DNA of 64,000 nucleotides from an uncultured bacterium (lineage in GTDB: Bacteria > Hydrothermota > UBA3072 > B12-G15), in contig CBFDSV010000003.1 of the NCBI GenBank assembly GCA_965612735.1, forward strand, positions 6,113 to 70,112, read 5' to 3'. A model generated the notes under the pieces. That model made no database searches. It was not told the origin of the DNA and was given only the letters and a program-made list of their open reading frames with translations. This document shows positions 3,845 to 62,513 of the stretch, piece by piece; within the stretch, counting starts at the first letter, position 1; the number at the start of each line of letters is the position of its first letter. A program made the position numbers and the translations under genes.

Positions 3845-6800
3845 ATGTTTCTTTTCTTTCTCATTTCTCAAACTTTTAACTGGGTTCATGTTTCAAATGG
3901 AACTGCAAGTGCTGGTTCTTCTTCAGATTGTGATTATGCCTATTCTGTAGTTGTTTCAAACGATACCATTTTTTCTGGTGGTTTTATTGGAAACACCTAT
4001 AAGGCAGGCCACATTGTTGCCCTTGATACATCAGGAACATCTCTATGGACCTATACTGGTACCTATCCAACTTCTGACTGTGAGATATACGACATCGTTA
4101 GTGATGGTGAAGGAAATATCTATGCAACAGGATATTTAATTCAGAGTTCTCCTGATATCTGGATACTGAAGATAAAAGACGGTAGCCTTGTATGGGAAAA
4201 AACCTATGATGGTGGTGTCAGTGGGTTTGATATCGGACATTGTATCACATACGGAACAGATAGTTATATTTACATTGCTGGTGAAAACGAAGCCCCTTCA
4301 GATTCGGGTGCCAATATATGTATTCTGAAGGTGGATACAGCAGGAAATATCTTACACGAAATCACCATTGATGGCGGATACAGTGCAGACAGGCCAAACG
4401 ATATTCTTTACACAGAGGTGAATGGAGAACCCTATATATATGTTGCTGGATACATGATGAAAAAAAATCCTGTCAGTGGAATGCCTGAAAGAAGATTCTA
4501 TGTTTGCAAGTTTGATACTGCTTTATCCCCGACCTCTTTAGAAAGTTACATTTTTACGCAGGTTTCCAACAGCGAAGCCTATGCAATAACAAGATTCCCT
4601 GATGGTAACATCTATGTGGTGGGATACGAGAACAAAAGTTTGCCCTGGGGAGAAGAGATATCGGTCGTAGCACTCACACCAGATACCCTTGGAGAAGTAT
4701 TCCATTATTTCTATCACGGAACAAATGGTGATTCAAATGGAAATTCGGATAGGGGTTATGATATTGTTTCTGATAATTCAGGATACCTTTATTTATGCGG
4801 ATATTCATATTACGATGCACAACAGGTAAATAATGCAGTAATTATCTGTATAGATACCCTTGGAAATCAACAATGGCTATACGAATATAATCCGCATCTA
4901 TACACACCCGACGATATTTTCCGTTCCATTACCATTTATAAAAATTTTGTTTTTGCAACAGGTTATACACTTCCCTATGGCACTGTGTATAGAAAACTTC
5001 TACTTGCAGGATTGACCACTTCTGGAACAGAAATCTTTAACACCTATTACCCTGATGGCGATTCATCTGAAGGATACAATGTTGTTTATAGCAATGGTAA
5101 CCTTTATATTGCAGGAATGGTTGAAGAAACAAATGACCACAAGTTCGCAGTGTTCTCTTACAGTGTGGAGATTGACACCATTCCACCAGCAAAGGTTACA
5201 CTTATCTCTCCTGATAGTGGTATAATTTCTTCTCAGACCGCACAGGTGTTTACATGGAAGAGTGTTACAGATGCCTCTGGAATAAAAGGATACATTTTCC
5301 AGTTAAGTTATGAACCTTCTTTTGCTTCTACTATTATTGATACAATGCTTTCGGACACAGCCTTCTCACAGAACTTTTCCAATGACACAACCTTTTACTG
5401 GAGGGTTCAGGCTTTAGATTCTGCTGGCAATTATGGGGAATGGTCAAATATCTGGGACATAACAATTGACGGAACTGTTCCTACAACCCCTGTGCTTATC
5501 TCACCTGTTAATGACACAATACTTTACCTCTCAAGCGTTCAATTCCAGTGGACATCTTCATCAAAGGGAACACCTGTTCACTATGTAATCAAAATAGATT
5601 CAATAGGTCCAGGGTTTATTTCGCCTTTCCTTGTAGATACAGTGGACACAAACGTTTACAACTATACCTTTACACAGGATGGTGAATTCTGGTGGAGTAT
5701 TCTTGCCTTTGACGATGCAGGAAATACAAGTGGAACCAGTATAGACTCTTTTATTCTGGATAAAACCCCTCCTGTAATAGACTCTGTAACAATCTGGACT
5801 GATACAACCTACAGAGGTCCTTTTGAGGTGCGAATGAAGGTAGTGGATGTTTCACCATTATCAGCGGTTGAATTATATTATCATATTAACAGTGGAACCT
5901 CGGTTACATCCAATCCTGTTTCCATAGGCAACAACTGGTTTGTTGATACAATCCCTGAAATTCCTGGAACCGAAGAAGACACTGTTTATTATTCAATTTA
6001 TGCAGCAGACGCAGGAGGTAATGAATCAGAGTATCCATCTGCAGGTGCAATTTCTTTCCGTGTGCTTGAAGACACGACTTCATATACAATCGTCTGGGAG
6101 AATGACTTTGAATCCGATAGCGGGAATATGGAGGCCGCAGGTGACTGGGAGTGGGGAGACCCTGAATATTCAGGAAGTTACTCAGGTCCCTCTGATTCCC
6201 ACTCTGGAACCCTGTGCTGGGGAACTGTCCTCACAGGGGATTACTCAAATTCCTCCAATTCCATTCTGACAACACCACCTATAACCATACCTGCAACCTT
6301 AGATAGTTTTGTGTATCTTTCCTTCTATATGTGGTTTTACAGTGAAAATTATTATGATGGTGGAAATGTAAAAATCTCACTTGATAATACAACTTTCTCC
6401 GTTATCCAGCCGCTTTTCCCTTCTTATGATACAGTTATATATTCTGGAAACGCAGGAATTCCAGGAGAAAACGCGTGGACTGATACAATTGGTGCACATA
6501 ACTGGATACAAGCAAAGTTTGACCTCTCAAACTATGTGGGTGAGACAGTTTATATAAGATTCCACTTCGGAAGCGATGGAAGTGTTGTCCGTCCAGGATG
6601 GTATATTGATGATGTCACAATATATGGACTCGGACGAACAGGAACTGTGTCAAAGGATATACCTGAAAAAGACTTCTTATGTGTAGACCCCCTAAGTGAG
6701 AAACTTGAAATCACCTTTGGTCTCTCGCATCAGACTGATATCAGTATTAGGATATATGATATTACTGGCAGGCTTGTAAGAAAACCCATAAGAGGCAGTT

Positions 6801-6910: not shown

Positions 6911-6913
6911 AAA

Positions 6914-6938
6914 GGGGGCATATGCCCCCTTTTTAATT
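6914..6938 (+). terminator. Rho-independent terminator (GGGGGCATATGCCCCC hairpin followed by a T run)
   Basis: Perfect GC-rich hairpin 4 nt after the stop codon, followed by TTTTT. Confidence 0.8.
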
Positions 6939-7530
6939 TATTGCCCTTTCATATTCCATCAAAAGTTCAATGGAACCGTCGTAATCAACAAGCTCCATCC
7001 ACTCAAGTTTTTTCCAGACCCCTTGCTTCAAGGTCTTCTTTAAAGGAGATAAAACTTCATTTCTTTTGATTTCGCATTCTCAACAATCTATTCCATAACA
7101 TCCGGAACCTTCGTTACTATAACAACCCCATACTGTATGAAGGTTATAGCATCACCTTCGTTTGTTTTGCAGGGATGGAGGTTGAAAATTTTACATTTTG
7201 TTGAATTGATAAATTGCTCCTCCGTCGCTATATACTATAGACCACCTTGTGCACGATGTTGCCGCACAAAAAATCTTGGTTTGTGGTGGTACAGGGTGAG
7301 ATGAAGTTCACTTATAGGTCAAGGGAAAATCCCACACGACAAAGCCCAGGAACATATGTTCCCTGTACCCTCTTTATCTTGCATTATATCTTTGTTTTAA
7401 CAGGAAAGAGAAAACCAGCCCCATAATAGTATGAGTCACTATCATGTTTTAATAAAGGTGTTGAGTATTGCAAAGATTGCAGTTCAAAGAAGAAAAGCCC
7501 TTTTACTTTAAAAAGCGCATAGACTTCAAA

Positions 7531-9069
7531 TTATTTTATATACCCCAGAACCTTTTTTATAAGTTTCATGTTCAGGTCTGTTTTGTTTTCAAAAAGGCCC
7601 CTGTATGCAAGGGTTGCCTTATCCAGGTCATAGCATGTTGAATTCTCTATGTTAACAAGAAGACCTTTAAGCCTGCTCTCCCTGAACTCCTCCTGGTGTT
7701 TCACATAGAATGCCTCACAGCAACTCCCTATGTATTCATTTATTCCCTTTTTTTTCATATCCTCAAAATTGTCAAGAAGGTCTTCAAAACTTGTTACAGT
7801 TCTTGGTTCAAGCCCTGCTTCCTCTGTCCATTCATACCCCTCACCGACTTCACAATCACCGCATATTGTACACTCATCCTGGTGTCTGAAGGGACACTTT
7901 GCCTTCTTTGCACAGTACGGAAAGAGGAAGACTTCTGGGGTGAATTTATCACCCGGCCTGAAGTTCACATTGAAAAGGTTGTTGGCCTCATCAGGTGTGA
8001 AACCTTCCTTAACCCACCTCCATTTGTTGAATACCTCAGTGAATGCACCAAGAAAATCTTCAAGGGGGAGTCCGCCTTCCTTTTTTATAAATTTTTCCAC
8101 AGTTGAGATTATCTTCCTTTCATTGAACGGAATATTCTTGAGTAGCCTTTCAAGGTCAAATATTGATTCCCTATTTTCAATGAAAAAATCACCTGTTATA
8201 TATGTTGCCCTGAGCATATTGGTTCTTGCATTCACCACAGCATTCACCTTTATGGTGCCAAAGGAAGACCTGTATGTTCCTGTTAAAAGACCCTGTAATT
8301 CTTCTGGAAGGCTTATTCTGTATATCCATTCTTCAGACTCAAAGTATGGGAGTAATGACTCAATCCTCTTTTTTTCTTCAGGTGTCAACTTTTCAGGTCT
8401 GAATTCCAGACCCAGCACCTCTTCAAGCCCCTTCCTTATAGCATTTTTCAATTCTTCTCTTGTGGGAATCCTTCCAAGTTCATTCTCAATGCAGGTTACC
8501 CTTTCTCTCACAGAGTCAATCTCCTTTGGTTTTAATTTTTCTATGGGAACCTTCAGGGAATAAAGCATTTCCTGTATCCAGTCCTGAACCAGAAGTGTTC
8601 CCTGGAACAGAAAAGCACCCCTGTAAGACACACCACCCATACCGGAAATCTTCCTTCCCCCAACCTCAATGTCATTTCTCTTTTTGAAGACCGCTTTTAT
8701 CCCCAGGGTTCCAAGTCCCCTGGCAACTGCCTCTCCTATAACTGAATACATTTTTTGGGGTGGATAGGGGAACATTGATACAGGTGCAATGATTTCCCAC
8801 CCAATCTGGGATGGGTCAAAGAATATTGCACCACCACCAGTGATTCTTCTGTTTATATGGTATCCCTTTTTCTCACAATACTCCCTTCTTATCTCCTGTT
8901 CAACTGCCTGGAAATATCCAACCAGACATGCAGGTGGAGAGAAGGAGAGGAATCTTAATGTTGGCATTGGTTTTTCTGACTGCACTTCCAGGAGTGCCTG
9001 GTCAGCAGCCATGTTCCATGCACCTGTTCTGTGTCCAGTGTCAATCTCTCTCAGTACCATGTATATCAA
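7531..9069 (-). CDS. lplA: Lipoate-protein ligase A (LplA) fused to a ~180-aa Cys-rich C-terminal extension
   Basis: N-terminal ~330 aa carry the LplA catalytic motifs (NRRITGGGAIFFD; GRKISGMGGVS...GTLLV). The extra C-terminus contains CPFRHQDECTICGDCEVGEGYE...GSCCEAFYVKH. Confidence 0.75.
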   Translation of the reverse strand: MIYMVLREIDTGHRTGAWNMAADQALLEVQSEKPMPTLRFLSFSPPACLVGYFQAVEQEIRREYCEKKGYHINRRITGGGAIFFDPSQIGWEIIAPVSMFPYPPQKMYSVIGEAVARGLGTLGIKAVFKKRNDIEVGGRKISGMGGVSYRGAFLFQGTLLVQDWIQEMLYSLKVPIEKLKPKEIDSVRERVTCIENELGRIPTREELKNAIRKGLEEVLGLEFRPEKLTPEEKKRIESLLPYFESEEWIYRISLPEELQGLLTGTYRSSFGTIKVNAVVNARTNMLRATYITGDFFIENRESIFDLERLLKNIPFNERKIISTVEKFIKKEGGLPLEDFLGAFTEVFNKWRWVKEGFTPDEANNLFNVNFRPGDKFTPEVFLFPYCAKKAKCPFRHQDECTICGDCEVGEGYEWTEEAGLEPRTVTSFEDLLDNFEDMKKKGINEYIGSCCEAFYVKHQEEFRESRLKGLLVNIENSTCYDLDKATLAYRGLFENKTDLNMKLIKKVLGYIK

Positions 9070-57719: not shown

Positions 57720-59835
57720 CCTGTATTTTCTCCCTGTTTTTGTACTGATTCCCCATAAGCCCGAAAAAATCAACCTCTCTAAATATTTTACATCACCTGT
57801 TGATAGTATCCAGATTTTATCAACAGATGGGGTGGACATGTATCCTATTATTGAGGGTAAGATAATGGTTCAACTTAAAGGAAATGTGGGGAGCGCAAGA
57901 ATAAATGTCTTTTCTGGAGGGGATTCATTTGTGAAGGATATGCTCTTTGTCAGGTCAAGAAGTAGAAAGATAAAATTCATTTACAGGGGGAGTGGAAGGA
58001 ATGTTTATCTTGCCGGGAGTTTTAATGGATGGAACAGTAATGCTCTCCCCATGATAAAAACAGATTCTGGATTTGTTGCAGAGATTCAGTTGAGTCCGGG
58101 CAGGTATGCGTACAAGTTTGTTGTTGATGGGAAATGGATTCAGGATACGAACAACCCCCTTTCTGAGGATGATGGATACGGTGGAAGGAATTCTATTCTG
58201 ATTGTGAAAGGAGGACATGAATTTATTGATGATATTTCACCCTCCCATTACAGGTTTCCTTTCACCTTGAGCAGGGTTTACATCCTTAATGGTGATAGAC
58301 TTCTTGATGAGGAAAACTATTCAATAAAAGGAAGGGATGTTTTCTTAAAAAATTTAAAAACAGATGTAATAAGGATTGTTGGCATTGGAAGGAAGGGTGA
58401 GATTTCAGGTCCATTTACCTTCAATATAAAACCCGAACCACCCATTGGTGGAATAATGTATTTCCTCTTTGTTGATAGATTCTTTGAGGGTGATGGCAGG
58501 AATATGAGGAAGATAAAAGACCCTGAAGTTCCAGATATTGCAAATTTTATGGGTGGTGATTTGAAGGGTGTTATATTGAAACTTAAGGATGGATATTTTG
58601 ATTCACTTGGTATAAGTGTTCTCTGGATTTCACCTGTATTCCTCTGTCCTGAAGGTGCATACAGGGATGCACTACCTCCCCATAGAAAATTCACAGGTTA
58701 TCATGGCTACTGGCCTGTTGACCTTTACAGGATAGACCCCTCCTTCGGGGATATGGATGACCTTAAAGAACTTGTTCAGGAGTGCCACAAAAGGGGCATA
58801 AAGGTCTTCCTTGATATGGTCTTAAACCATGTGCATGAGAGTTCACGGGTTTACAAAAAACACAGGGACTGGTTTACCTCAATCTATCTCCCTGATGGAC
58901 AAAAGAACATAAGGCTTTTTGATGAGCATCCCTTCACAACATGGTTTGATGAGTTTCTCCCCTCTTTTGATTTCTCAAAGGACAGTGTGGTTGAATATCT
59001 TTCCTCTGCTGCTAAGTTCTGGATTAAGGAAGTGGGTATAGATGGATTCAGGCTTGATGCAGTGAAGCATATTCCCCATGAATTCTGGAGGGTATTAAGG
59101 AGAAGGATGGAGGTAGAAAGACATGTCTGGATGATAGGTGAGACAATATCATCAAGGGAGAAGATAAATGAATGGATATCTCCTTCAGAACTTGATGGTC
59201 AGTTTGACTTTCCTCTTTTCTGGGTGTTGAGGGATGCACTTGCTGGAAGGACTGGCATGGACAGGCTCATGCAGGAGATCGTTCGTTCACAGGATGCCTT
59301 TTCAGATGGGCTCTGGGTCCCATTTATGGACAACCATGACTTCGGAAGGCTTGTCTCCTTTATAAATGGTGACCTTCTGGGGAATGAAAAGGAACTTGCC
59401 TTTGTATCCCCTCCCGGAAAGCCTGAGAAAAAATCCTATCACCTTATGAAGATAGGGTTTGCCATCCTCTACTCCCTGCCAGGACTTCCAATGATTTACT
59501 ATGGTGATGAGATAGGGCTTCCAGGTGCTGGAGACCCTGATAACAGAAGGATGATGAGGTTTAAACATGATTCTGATGAGGAACTGCTTCTCAAAGAGGT
59601 GAAGAAACTCGCAGGTTTAAGAAGGAAGAGCAGGGCCTTAAGATTTGGAAGGGTGGTACCCATAAAGGCAGGGAATGAATACATGGTATATATGAAAAAG
59701 TACTTTTCCGAGAAGGTTGTGTGTGGGTTCAACAGGGGTGAGAAGGATATTGTTGTGGGATTCAAAGACCCATTCACGGGTAAACATATAAAATTAACCA
59801 TACCCGGTGAAGGGTATAGAATGGAGGAGATATGA
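57712..59835 (+). CDS. GH13 alpha-amylase-family enzyme with N-terminal CBM48/E-set glycogen-binding domain
   Basis: CBM48-like (VYLAGSFNGWN...YKFVVDGKW). GH13 regions (DMVLNHV; GFRLDAVKHI; GETI; MDNHD). Confidence 0.8.
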   Translation: MYSLYFLPVFVLIPHKPEKINLSKYFTSPVDSIQILSTDGVDMYPIIEGKIMVQLKGNVGSARINVFSGGDSFVKDMLFVRSRSRKIKFIYRGSGRNVYLAGSFNGWNSNALPMIKTDSGFVAEIQLSPGRYAYKFVVDGKWIQDTNNPLSEDDGYGGRNSILIVKGGHEFIDDISPSHYRFPFTLSRVYILNGDRLLDEENYSIKGRDVFLKNLKTDVIRIVGIGRKGEISGPFTFNIKPEPPIGGIMYFLFVDRFFEGDGRNMRKIKDPEVPDIANFMGGDLKGVILKLKDGYFDSLGISVLWISPVFLCPEGAYRDALPPHRKFTGYHGYWPVDLYRIDPSFGDMDDLKELVQECHKRGIKVFLDMVLNHVHESSRVYKKHRDWFTSIYLPDGQKNIRLFDEHPFTTWFDEFLPSFDFSKDSVVEYLSSAAKFWIKEVGIDGFRLDAVKHIPHEFWRVLRRRMEVERHVWMIGETISSREKINEWISPSELDGQFDFPLFWVLRDALAGRTGMDRLMQEIVRSQDAFSDGLWVPFMDNHDFGRLVSFINGDLLGNEKELAFVSPPGKPEKKSYHLMKIGFAILYSLPGLPMIYYGDEIGLPGAGDPDNRRMMRFKHDSDEELLLKEVKKLAGLRRKSRALRFGRVVPIKAGNEYMVYMKKYFSEKVVCGFNRGEKDIVVGFKDPFTGKHIKLTIPGEGYRMEEI

Positions 59836-60218
59836 TAAGGATTGCTTGTGCAACAGATGATGATGTACACTTTTACCATGGTCATTTTGGTGATGCACCG
59901 TACTACCTTATCTATGAGATGGAGGAGGACGGCAGGTACAGTGTGGCGGAGAGAATAGAGAATACAGCACCAGAGGAAAGGATGCACGGAGACCCTGAGA
60001 AGGCAAAGGGAATAATGGAGATTATGAAAAAGGAATTTGTGGATGTCCTGATAAATATCCAGTTTGGTCCAAACATAAAGAGAATAAGGAAGAACTTTGT
60101 ACCTGTTCTCTCCAATATTAAGGAGATTGAGCCAGCATTAAATCATCTGGCAAACCGCATGGGAGAAATCAAGGAAGAGTTAAAAAACCAGGAAAAAAAG
60201 ATTATTATTCTTCCTTAG
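59832..60218 (+). CDS. NifX/NifB-family domain protein (third copy in window)
   Basis: MIRIACATDDD...HFGDAPYYLIYEMEEDG...INIQFGPN fits the PF02579-like pattern. Confidence 0.55.
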   Translation: MIRIACATDDDVHFYHGHFGDAPYYLIYEMEEDGRYSVAERIENTAPEERMHGDPEKAKGIMEIMKKEFVDVLINIQFGPNIKRIRKNFVPVLSNIKEIEPALNHLANRMGEIKEELKNQEKKIIILP

Positions 60219-60417
60219 GCTCCATGCATGCCTCAAGGCAGCACTCAAGGCACTCCTCGTAGAGTTCCTCAAGTTTATCTATGTGTTCCCTGTAACACTG
60301 AATCTTTTCCTGGTCTTCAACCCCTTTTACTGCCTCAAGCACGTCCTTTGCAGCAAGTATGGCTTCTCCAAGGGAGTTTAAGGCCTTTATTTTTAACTTC
60401 AGAAGTTCTTTGTTCAT
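60205..60417 (-). CDS. Hypothetical small Cys-rich protein (70 aa)
   Basis: ORF only, with a C-terminal CYREH...CLECCLEAC cluster. Convergent with 59832-60218. Confidence 0.3.
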   Translation of the reverse strand: MNKELLKLKIKALNSLGEAILAAKDVLEAVKGVEDQEKIQCYREHIDKLEELYEECLECCLEACMEPKEE

Positions 60418-60483
60418 ATAGCCTCCTTTTTGTCAAAGATTAACACCCTTAAATCTTTAGTCAACCCCTCCCGCCCTCCTGAG

Positions 60484-61450
60484 GGACGGAGGTTGACTCT
60501 ATGACACCCTGCTTTTCTCCTTAGTCCTTATATATATTTTCGCCAGGGAAGAGTATTTTAACGTGCGATACGGAGCAAGTTTAATAATCTCAGAATACTT
60601 CATTCCTGCTTCATCCTTTAATAATACAAGAAGTTTGTTACGTAACTCTTTCCCTTTCATGGTATTGGGATTAATTTGTTCTATCTTTATACCATACTGT
60701 TTTTCAAAATCATTTATAACATCTTCAACTGGTCTCATAATGAAATCCTGTCTCCTTTTACGCATAGAAGTTTCTACTTGCTTTCTTCTGTTAAAGTTCT
60801 TTTCTATCTCTGTTTCAAACCCTGAATTTCCCAGAATAAAGCCAAAGCGAGTTTTTACAGGTTTTAGTTTTTTATCCGTTAAAAGCCATTCCTTAAGCAT
60901 TGTTTGGAACTGAGTCTCGCTTCCATAGATGCTCTCGACGAATTCGTTATCAACGAAATCAGAGTTTTCATCTCTGAAATATATGCCCAGGCTTGTCCAT
61001 GGATAATTATAGGGATTATATACAATACCAGCCCTTACCGGATTAAGGAGTACATATATTATAGCGGTTGTTAAATAGTTTTCTTTCTGAATTAAGGTGG
61101 AGAGAAACCTGTTCTGAAATACATACCCAATTCCACCATGTTGCTTCCTATAATAAATAGCATAGGTTCCGTTGAGATAACGCATAAAATCACTCAATCG
61201 TCCGGAGGAGTTTTGAAGGATTAAATGGTAATGGTTGTCAAGAATAGTGTAAGCCAATAGTCTTATGCGGTACTTTTTTACAGATTCTCTTAGAAGATTT
61301 AAAAAGTATTCTTTTGTTTTCTTCCCGAAAAAGATAAATTCGCCTCTTAAGCCCCGGGACATGACATGATGATATGCTCCTTCGTAGGTTACCCTTGAAC
61401 TTCTCATTTTTCTATTATAGTGGAAGGTGTCATAGAGTCAACCTCCGTCC
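60484..61450 (-). mobile_element. IS200/RAYT-like element: HUH tyrosine-transposase gene flanked by perfect 25-bp inverted repeats (GGACGGAGGTTGACTCTATGACACC)
   Basis: IRs at 60484-60508 and 61426-61450 are exact reverse complements. The left end also forms an imperfect hairpin with 60460-60476. The internal gene carries the HUH motif. The element is AT-rich relative to its flanks. Confidence 0.7.
60499..61407 (-). CDS. IS200-like / REP-associated tyrosine (Y1, HUH) transposase-family protein, 302 aa
   Basis: LLAYTILDNHYHLILQ is the HUH motif. YHHVMSRG N-terminal motif and GYVFQNRFLSTLIQKENYL tyrosine region, typical of Y1_Tnp with a long C-terminal extension. Confidence 0.7.
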   Translation of the reverse strand: MRSSRVTYEGAYHHVMSRGLRGEFIFFGKKTKEYFLNLLRESVKKYRIRLLAYTILDNHYHLILQNSSGRLSDFMRYLNGTYAIYYRKQHGGIGYVFQNRFLSTLIQKENYLTTAIIYVLLNPVRAGIVYNPYNYPWTSLGIYFRDENSDFVDNEFVESIYGSETQFQTMLKEWLLTDKKLKPVKTRFGFILGNSGFETEIEKNFNRRKQVETSMRKRRQDFIMRPVEDVINDFEKQYGIKIEQINPNTMKGKELRNKLLVLLKDEAGMKYSEIIKLAPYRTLKYSSLAKIYIRTKEKSRVS

Positions 61451-62513
61451 TTATGAAGGTGAAGATGTCAATTCTACCTGAATAGCAGGAGACCCATGCT
61501 TCTATTGTGTTTCCATCCTGATAAATTGCCACGCCAACTGGTTCATATCCAGTTTTCAATCTGTATAACCTTTTCAGGTTATCTGCCTGGAACACATCAA
61601 GGATATTATCCCTGTAACTCACAACAAACACATATTTTCCATCCGGTGAAATTGTCAGGGTTCTTGCAAGCCTTCCAGTTTTTGAACTTTTTATCACCTT
61701 ACCTGCTTTAAGGTCAATCTTAGCCACCTTCCCGCCTATATTAATTGATGCGTATAGATAGTTATCCTTTATAACCAGATGTCTGGGATTTACACCTGCA
61801 TGGATAAATCCAGTTGTTTTCCATGTGCCCATCTCAACAATCCTGATAAGGTCACTGCTCATCTCAGCAATATATAGAAGTTTATTGTCCATTGATACGG
61901 CAATACCCCTGGGTATTCTACCAGTTGGAATATCTGTGATTTTTTTCCAAGTGAAGGGGTCTTCAGCAGATATATCAATCACGGATACATTGTTTGAATG
62001 CCAGTTTGCGACAAACAGATACTTTCCATCCCTTGACTTTTCAATGACTTTGGGTGTTTTACCTGTTTCAATAAATAAAAGGTCACCTGTTTTTACATAA
62101 TCTGTTTCCATGTATTTCAGAGAAACCCTTTTGTGGGGATAATTTTCTATTGGTTTAAGTGTATCCTTTAAATCCCAGACAACCACCCCACCAGCATTGT
62201 GTAATGATATCCAGAGGAATCTCCCATTATGGGTGAAGCATGCCTCAACAGGCTTTTCCTGATAAGAATTTATCCATATCTTTTTCCTGTAATTATACCC
62301 TTTACCAGGTGTTTTTTTGAATCTCAGAATCCTTAAAAGTTTCCGTGATTTTCTGTCAAACTCATACACACTCATATCCTCAAGATTCTGGGCATAAACC
62401 CTTTCTCCATCAGGGCTTATCACAATGGATTTTGTTCCTGAACCACTCCTTATTACCTGATGATGTACCATATCAAGTTGTGCCATGGTTATGAATAAAA
62501 GCATAAAACCCAT
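61404..62513 (-). CDS. Secreted YVTN/lactonase-type beta-propeller protein; C-terminal 16 aa encoded by the transposon IR
   Basis: Signal peptide and repeated SPDGKY-type beta-propeller blades. The last codons (...TEVDSMTPSTIIEK*) lie inside the right IR. Confidence 0.55.
   Translation of the reverse strand: MGFMLLFITMAQLDMVHHQVIRSGSGTKSIVISPDGERVYAQNLEDMSVYEFDRKSRKLLRILRFKKTPGKGYNYRKKIWINSYQEKPVEACFTHNGRFLWISLHNAGGVVVWDLKDTLKPIENYPHKRVSLKYMETDYVKTGDLLFIETGKTPKVIEKSRDGKYLFVANWHSNNVSVIDISAEDPFTWKKITDIPTGRIPRGIAVSMDNKLLYIAEMSSDLIRIVEMGTWKTTGFIHAGVNPRHLVIKDNYLYASINIGGKVAKIDLKAGKVIKSSKTGRLARTLTISPDGKYVFVVSYRDNILDVFQADNLKRLYRLKTGYEPVGVAIYQDGNTIEAWVSCYSGRIDIFTFIRTEVDSMTPSTIIEK

Follow-up and report, generated by a model that had tools for sequence, protein, structure and literature searches.

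Insertion sequences of the IS200/IS605 family (IS608, ISDra2) have no terminal inverted repeats and carry subterminal hairpins instead; their transposases, of ~130-155 amino acids, possess a YxxxQ motif, and the elements are usually multi-copy, often with a tnpB gene. Repetitive extragenic palindromes (REPs) are short, fold on themselves, carry a GTAG tag and occur in hundreds of copies; their single-strand hairpins are bound by an enzyme of ~165 amino acids. A REPtron reportedly consists of the E. coli gene for TnpA_REP, a REP-associated tyrosine transposase (RAYT), with flanking REPs or bacterial interspersed mosaic elements (BIMEs), and is said to have been characterized by Nunvar in 2010 and by Ton-Hoang and Messing in 2012 (PDB 4er8). 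Here we describe a 967-bp cassette carried by an uncultured bacterium on contig CBFDSV010000003.1, within a window of 64,000 nucleotides (the whole stretch of DNA analysed; coordinates are positions in this window unless a contig handle precedes them). With a probability of roughly 0.75 we consider this cassette to be a TIRtron, that is, a single-copy TIRYT gene bracketed by two 26-nt inverted repeats and working by the mechanism proposed below; its product would be a RAYT-like Y1 (HUH) nuclease-ligase acting on single-strand DNA, to which a C-terminal module of the DNA-binding type has been added.

Di Nocera et al. (2013; PMC3733652) described RAYT-like genes with long terminal inverted repeats which are not REPs, and named them TIRtrons/TIRYTs. 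Their repeats lie at a fixed distance from the open reading frame (ORF) or overlap it; many contain GGGGWSAS, the repeats of other TIRYTs being unrelated, and occasionally they are found in small families of solo, dimeric or clustered copies (PMC3733652). In the classification of Quentin et al. (2018; PMC6006769) most TIRYTs belong to TnpA_Y1 subclass 2.1, the members of which are long, have a DnaA_C/helix-turn-helix (HTH)-like C-terminal extension, and lack REPs. The cassette is a newcomer, centred on candidate division WOR-3, in this known and experimentally uncharacterised class, and is neither a REPtron nor an element of the IS200 type. As with the published TIRtrons, a RAYT-like Y1 gene longer than those of the RAYTs is accompanied by long non-REP repeats with G-rich tips, near or overlapping the ORF; solo, dimeric or clustered repeats are rare, and divergent paralogs with their own repeats can share one genome. 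It differs from them in its host, the candidate phylum WOR-3 having been unsampled in 2013, and in two properties absent from the text of that study, a predicted leaderless promoter within the repeat and instability of the repeat tips (PMC3733652). The cassette is built from the following features.

60499 to 61407, minus strand: Y1/HUH gene encoding 302 amino acids (TIRYT), recognized by Pfam Y1_Tnp with an E-value of 1.7e-9.
61426 to 61451, minus strand: 5' terminal inverted repeat (the upstream arm in the orientation of the gene); the minus strand reads AGGACGGAGGTTGACTCTATGACACC.
60483 to 60508, plus strand: 3' terminal inverted repeat (the downstream arm); the plus strand reads GGGACGGAGGTTGACTCTATGACACC.
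61414 to 61441, minus strand: predicted promoter of the Y1 gene, composed of TTGACT (61441-61436), a 16-nt spacer, TATAAT (61419-61414), 6 nt, and the ATG at 61407.

Measured from outer tip to outer tip the cassette is 967 bp long, with one ORF between the arms. Within the arms 25 bp (GGACGGAGGTTGACTCTATGACACC) form an exact inverted repeat, located at 60484-60508 on the plus and 61426-61450 on the minus strand; it stretches to 34 nt at 88% complementarity. No further pair of this kind was found in the 64-kb window, even allowing 3-5 mismatches, and 100 shuffles yielded 0 matches. The average G+C content of the cassette is 36.3% versus 41.8% for the window, which places it in the lowest 0.3% of 967-nt windows. 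An earlier note on this DNA had reported a 967-bp AT-rich element bounded by exact 25-bp inverted repeats, and the coordinates, the shuffles and the base composition all agree with it. The 3' arm extends over the stop codon of the Y1 gene and into the three codons before it; the -35 hexamer is located in the 5' arm, which is traversed by the ORF of the neighbouring beta-propeller gene.

Homologs of the Y1 protein are ~300 amino acids long and derive mostly from candidate division WOR-3. We surveyed the window together with nine further repeat-flanked genes, at protein identities of 27-63%. All ten are bracketed by exact or near-exact arms of 23-35 nt, the elements measure 967-1056 bp, and the 3' arm lies between -21 and +19 nt from the stop codon. 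When the arms of nine members were anchored on the -35 hexamer, those of the same locus proved identical at essentially every position from -10 to +12, and identity between arms dropped to chance outside this core of ~23 nt. At least ten core positions vary between loci, each time in both arms together. A locus-specific core of ~23 nt shared by both arms is present in 9 of the 11 full-length homologous genes examined, and the repeat consensus is GGG(G)[AT]CGG[ATG]G[GC]TTGAC[AT]-N3-4-TGACA. Since the arms are matched within a locus and have diverged between loci, both must fit one partner. This family-wide covariation supports the view, derived from sequence comparison, that the inverted repeats are real and functional; that they might be a coincidental structured element, a possibility entertained in the earlier note, is excluded.

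Within the 5' arm lie the -35 box of the predicted Y1 promoter and most of its spacer; this promoter agrees with the consensus at 11 of 12 positions, more than any other match in the region. The arrangement of -35 box, 16 nt, -10 box, 6 nt and ATG, with 10-12 of 12 consensus matches, recurs in nine of the ten repeat-flanked genes surveyed, one of them a paralog of 27% identity. Because only 6 nt separate the -10 box from the ATG, this strong promoter is predicted to yield a leaderless Y1 mRNA. Neither of the two papers on the TIRYT class mentions a promoter-in-repeat or leaderless geometry (PMC3733652, PMC6006769).

The Y1 protein consists of a RAYT-like core (approximately residues 1-145), a middle region, a disordered linker (residues 209-221) and a C-terminal helical domain (residues 227-301). 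Its match to Pfam Y1_Tnp scores 38 bits against a cut-off of 23, and HYH is found at residues 59-61, in agreement with the earlier assignment of a 302-aa Y1 (HUH) gene. The best NCBIfam match, REP_Tyr_transpos (NF047646), extends over the full length of the model but reaches 62.8 bits against a cut-off of 80, and the IS200 model (NF033573) 22.8 bits against a cut-off of 55. Using a profile of 49 homologs, the best solved-structure relative by sequence is E. coli TnpA_REP (4er8). The same structure is the top fold match (E 6e-7, template-modelling [TM] score 0.69) to an AlphaFold model with a mean confidence (pLDDT) of 88, ranking above ISDra2 and IS608. Residues H59, H61, Y118, N122, W137 and S139 are invariant across 49 sequences, and the YxxxNP catalytic motif (Y118, N122) and Y135-x-W-S-S are invariant or nearly so. 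By comparison with its 302 amino acids, the RAYT model has 146 positions and the 4er8 chain 165 residues. The gene is under purifying selection, the pN/pS ratio between strains being 0.15-0.21.

These data support the placement of the Y1 gene on a RAYT-like branch rather than among the IS200/IS605 transposases. The HUH/Y1 fold and the lack of a target-site duplication are shared with IS200/IS605 elements; the terminal inverted repeats, the lack of a hairpin at the 5' end, the Y118-x-x-x-N122 motif and the length of 302 amino acids set the cassette apart from them, as do its single copy and the lack of a tnpB gene. The view of the earlier note that this is not a classical IS200/IS605 element is thus borne out by the presence of terminal repeats and by the NF033573 score. 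Classical DDE insertion sequences differ in their enzyme, which here is of the HUH/Y1 type, and the cassette again differs from them in having no target-site duplication. Only two contigs in the viral IMG/VR collection (L034 and L035) contain distant matches, near the contig ends, to the N-terminal Y1 core only (32-41% identity, residues 1-160).

Residues 146-302 have no sequence match in Pfam or the PDB, PDB profile search included. When this region was modelled alone using AlphaFold2 it gave a confident helical domain (residues 227-301, pLDDT ~94), and in a fold search with this domain six of the top seven matches were to DnaA. The alignment to the DNA-bound domain IV of DnaA (3pvp_A) has a probability of 0.98, a TM score of 0.64 and a root-mean-square deviation of 2.3 A over 80 columns. 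Homology to DnaA at the sequence level was considered and rejected: the Pfam, PDB profile and hhalign comparisons were all negative, and the exhaustive profile search returned no proteins of DnaA length. The structural model weakly suggests that the last domain resembles DnaA domain IV, at the level of the fold only. Among the 1.84 billion protein representatives covered by the exhaustive search the C-terminal region was found in only 332, all of which are either proteins of ~300 amino acids in which it occupies ~147-300, or fragments thereof. Since these matches are confined to ~300-aa Y1 proteins, the C-terminal module is private to the subfamily and always stands alongside the Y1 core; it forms a small clade of its own. 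In common with subclass 2.1 the protein is among the longest of the Y1 type, has a C-terminal extension and a serine motif after the catalytic tyrosine, and has no REPs nearby; it differs from that subclass in its separate C-terminal clade, in that the Pfam HTH and DnaA profiles are silent here, and in that its likeness to DnaA lies at the fold level.

The earlier note had regarded inverted flanking palindromes around a single Y1 gene as the hallmark of a REPtron, in which case the flanking repeats would be REPs spread throughout the genome by a RAYT. The closest relative of the Y1 core is indeed TnpA_REP, the YxxxNP helix is shared, and the gene is single-copy with inverted cognate repeats on both sides; moreover, solo copies can sit after genes as terminator-like hairpins (L027), and doublets fold like REPINs. 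The arms themselves, however, are not self-complementary, the region of the 5' arm folding no better than its shuffles (-2.9 kcal/mol, z 0.39), and they are essentially unique in the genome. There is no further copy in the 64 kb at 5 mismatches, nor did the 20 kb around L036, L040 and L043 contain additional ones. The exact 25-mer, for which the earlier note had proposed a search for additional copies, occurs only as this pair in the window and has one match in 185,579 species genomes, in a WOR-3 metagenome-assembled genome 94-96% identical to the window; a tolerant 22-mer pattern recovered only 10 loci in the JGI metagenome collection. The protein, in addition, falls under the RAYT cut-off and, being ~160 residues longer, has twice the RAYT length. 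The REPtron reading is largely refuted already and we regard it as very improbable; the published name which applies to this layout is TIRtron/TIRYT (PMC3733652, PMC6006769).

Dispersed copies of the repeat are absent from the 64-kb window, and the sole palindrome near the element is a partial copy of the repeat's tip.

60460 to 60481, plus strand: degenerate partial copy, in inverted orientation, of the repeat's outer half; it pairs with the 3' arm and abuts the 3' tip.

Together with the arm this sequence forms a hairpin (60460-60497) with a dG of -11 to -13 kcal/mol and a z of about -3.5. The left-end hairpin proposed in the earlier note therefore does fold, but its left half (60460-60481) is outside the conserved cassette and is missing from the sister strains L001-L003. 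A counterpart at the 5' end of the element was not found. As a subterminal structure of the IS200 type the hairpin was rejected, its outer half being unconserved in the sister strains and the other end having no equivalent. No RNA element was recognized in the region by Rfam at gathering thresholds.

An active autonomous insertion sequence combining an HUH enzyme with terminal inverted repeats is another explanation; the whole 967-bp unit would then transpose, and the junction with the beta-propeller gene would be recent. The terminal repeats, the distinct base composition and the compact layout are what one would expect of such an element. The genomic contexts of the cassettes are unrelated between all lineages, and there are beta-propeller orthologs without the cassette, a decayed second copy in L037 and miniature repeat-only derivatives. 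Each population, however, has a single copy, always at the same site in up to 24 contigs or samples, and the high contig counts of P0006, P0008 and P0051 represent the same site in many samples. Identical copies at two sites were not found, the exact 25-mer occurs once in the 185,579 genomes, and at the tips of ten genes no direct repeat of >2 nt was found, so that the target-site duplications raised in the earlier note are absent. A strong consensus promoter and purifying selection also fit a maintained gene better than a selfish insertion sequence. We consider active transposition of the whole unit unlikely.

Three Logan contigs (L019, L020 and L044; 976-1009 bp) start and end exactly at arms of 30-31 nt and recur in at least 20 samples. 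Inverted repeats of at least 30 nt break k=31 assembly graphs, and many contigs of ~1 kb are the consequence. These were accordingly rejected as a multi-copy signal, because they end exactly at the 30-31-nt repeats where the graph breaks. An invertible switch was also rejected, the orientation of the gene relative to both flanks being constant in three populations.

The flank beyond the 3' tip differs between the window and its sister strains in the following region.

57917 to 60481, no strand: segment deleted in sister strains L001, L002 and L003, defined by blastn breakpoints and junction alignment.
60205 to 60417, minus strand: Cys-rich ORF of 70 amino acids, adjoining the cassette on its downstream side and provided with a good Shine-Dalgarno sequence.

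The deletion spans ~2.55 kb, and no more than 10 nt separate its right breakpoint from the tip of the 3' repeat. Lost with it are the larger part of a 707-aa gene of the alpha-amylase type, a NifX-like (Nitro_FeMo-Co) gene and the Cys-rich ORF, which has no match in Pfam or NCBIfam. The three strains retain the beta-propeller/Y1 junction and both arms, joined near the 3' tip to approximately codon 70 of the amylase gene, and L001, compared with L002, has lost another 15 nt at the junction. In some populations of another lineage, but not in others, 18 nt across the 3' tip and the adjoining flank are present as a tandem duplication; L037 has a 25-nt tandem duplication across the flank and the 5' tip, in L016 the tip recurs 13 nt downstream, and in the window there is the inverted partial copy at 60460-60481. 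Deletions and small duplications thus make the outer tips of the repeats hotspots of rearrangement in several independent lineages.

Repeats without an intact gene were also found. In L027 a solo repeat sits immediately past a stop codon; it has a tip palindrome similar to that of the window and a run of seven T residues (z -6). L033 derives from an organism of higher G+C content and has no Y1 gene in its 11.8 kb; it contains a 68-bp head-to-head doublet of the repeat (4363-4430), which lies between convergent genes and folds as a hairpin, and an inverted pair 818 nt apart (4881-5722) enclosing a truncated IU_nuc_hydro (nucleoside-hydrolase) fragment. A repeat pair ~200 nt apart plus one extra arm are present in L030. 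In the decayed second cassette of L037 a repeat arm (2 mismatches), a TATAAT box and the beginning of a Y1 ORF, now corrupted, can still be recognized.

As side observations, the same contig (L037, 4806-10894) has three cassettes or relics in 6 kb, comprising the intact P0045 gene, the decayed copy (7690-7780), and a Y1 paralog of 27% identity with its own, unrelated-looking repeats (GGGTCAAATCTCGACACTTGACAA). In both this contig and the window a Nitro_FeMo-Co gene adjoins a Y1 gene. Elsewhere in the window two convergent genes are separated by a gap of 620 nt (6911-7530) that contains a degenerate repeat-like doublet (GGGATGGAGGTTGAAAATTTTACA ... CTCCTCCGTCGC; 7172-7228). This doublet gives an imperfect hairpin (z -2.7) and may represent what is left of a decayed gene-less pair of repeats.

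The gene could in principle be that of a host nuclease, fully domesticated and immobile, its arms serving as promoter/operator and as a terminator-associated site, and the changes at the tips being due to replication slippage. One copy per genome, purifying selection and the conserved promoter geometry are in keeping with this, and some 3' tips do form a hairpin followed by a T-run. A terminator, on the other hand, has no need to reproduce the -35 region nucleotide by nucleotide, along 23 nt and in nine lineages, and most 3' arms have no hairpin partner. The gene-less doublets and the decayed duplicate cassette imply that repeat units get copied, which also counts against an immobile gene, and we give this explanation very little credence.

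For the TIRtron reading we propose the following mechanism. The protein would recognize both arms, probably as duplex DNA by means of its C-terminal helical domain, and in binding them would repress the strong promoter from which it is expressed. At the repeat tips one strand may be nicked and rejoined by the HUH/Tyr centre; such an activity would rarely copy the cassette or repeat-only derivatives, and would more often leave rearrangements adjacent to the tips.

Several observations weigh against this reading or parts of it. The tips have the sequence GGG(G)[AT]CGG[ATG]G, and while GGGGWS fits some of them the seventh position is G and not the A of GGGGWSAS. Two loci depart from the family pattern. 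One (L031 1259-3570, equivalent to L032 2583-4894) has three tandem direct 5' units with periods of 175 and 156 nt, followed downstream by two tandem, divergent Y1 genes, the first having a Shine-Dalgarno leader, and no 3' arm was found there; in the other (L026) a truncated Y1 gene has a leader with a Shine-Dalgarno sequence. With respect to the C-terminal domain, the Foldseek E-values of the DnaA matches are only 0.1-0.4, which makes the DnaA-like assignment weak. Pfam Bac_DnaA_C, HTH_23 and HTH_28 gave no match at E≤1 in the protein and 48 relatives, and hhalign against E. coli DnaA domain IV was negative. As to mobility, no cassette was found intact at two sites and no empty site was recovered, the closest beta-propeller orthologs sharing no synteny. 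A deletion ending near a repeat could also arise without the enzyme. Finally, the literature searched yielded no functional study of TIRYTs, so that binding, autorepression and nicking are inferred.

The beta-propeller gene upstream of the Y1 gene ends within the cassette.

61404 to 61454, minus strand: 3' end of the beta-propeller gene, comprising 16 codons and the stop (IRTEVDSMTPSTIIEK*) and derived from the 5' arm and the promoter.

Its TGA overlaps the ATG of the Y1 gene as ATGA. The earlier observation that the last 16 codons (61407-61454) are supplied by the repeat holds, the frame running through the 5' arm and on through the promoter. The beta-propeller protein can be aligned with twelve orthologs as far as ...SGxIxIFTF (residue 353 in the window), past which the orthologs carry just 2-5, at most 14, unrelated residues; the tail here is longer by about 11-14 residues encoded by the repeat and promoter. 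Since the homology of the orthologs ends at ...IFTF, the propeller fold is intact. Of the suggestion that an insertion truncated or replaced the C-terminus, the extension or replacement of the tail can be retained, but not the truncation. The closest orthologs (L021 and L023; 59-65% identity) have no Y1 neighbour. The cassette would appear to have become fixed just after the beta-propeller gene, whose frame runs through the 5' arm and promoter with its fold kept.

For annotation, such genes should not be labelled IS200 transposase or RayT by default, and ORFs beside such repeats can be artificially or genuinely extended through them. In short-read assemblies, contigs of ~1 kb ending at repeats of at least 30 nt are a practical signature of these cassettes. 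REP-less RAYT-like Y1 proteins (TIRYTs, subclass 2.1) are common in genomes but, to our knowledge, have been assigned neither a function nor a mechanism. The locus and its relatives offer a clean, minimal system for this class, with a 23-nt core that covaries with the protein, a built-in promoter predicted to be leaderless, a private C-terminal module and natural variants whose deletions and duplications end at the tips. We would also advance, tentatively and as a rather doubtful proposition, that these cassettes constitute a distinct WOR-3-centred HUH family, unlike both IS200/IS605 and the REPtrons, in which a duplex-binding C-terminal module, a self-repressed leaderless promoter and nicking at the tips are combined. 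If true, this would provide the first mechanistic model for the TIRYT class, with tip-adjacent deletions and duplications and rare miniatures as its footprint.

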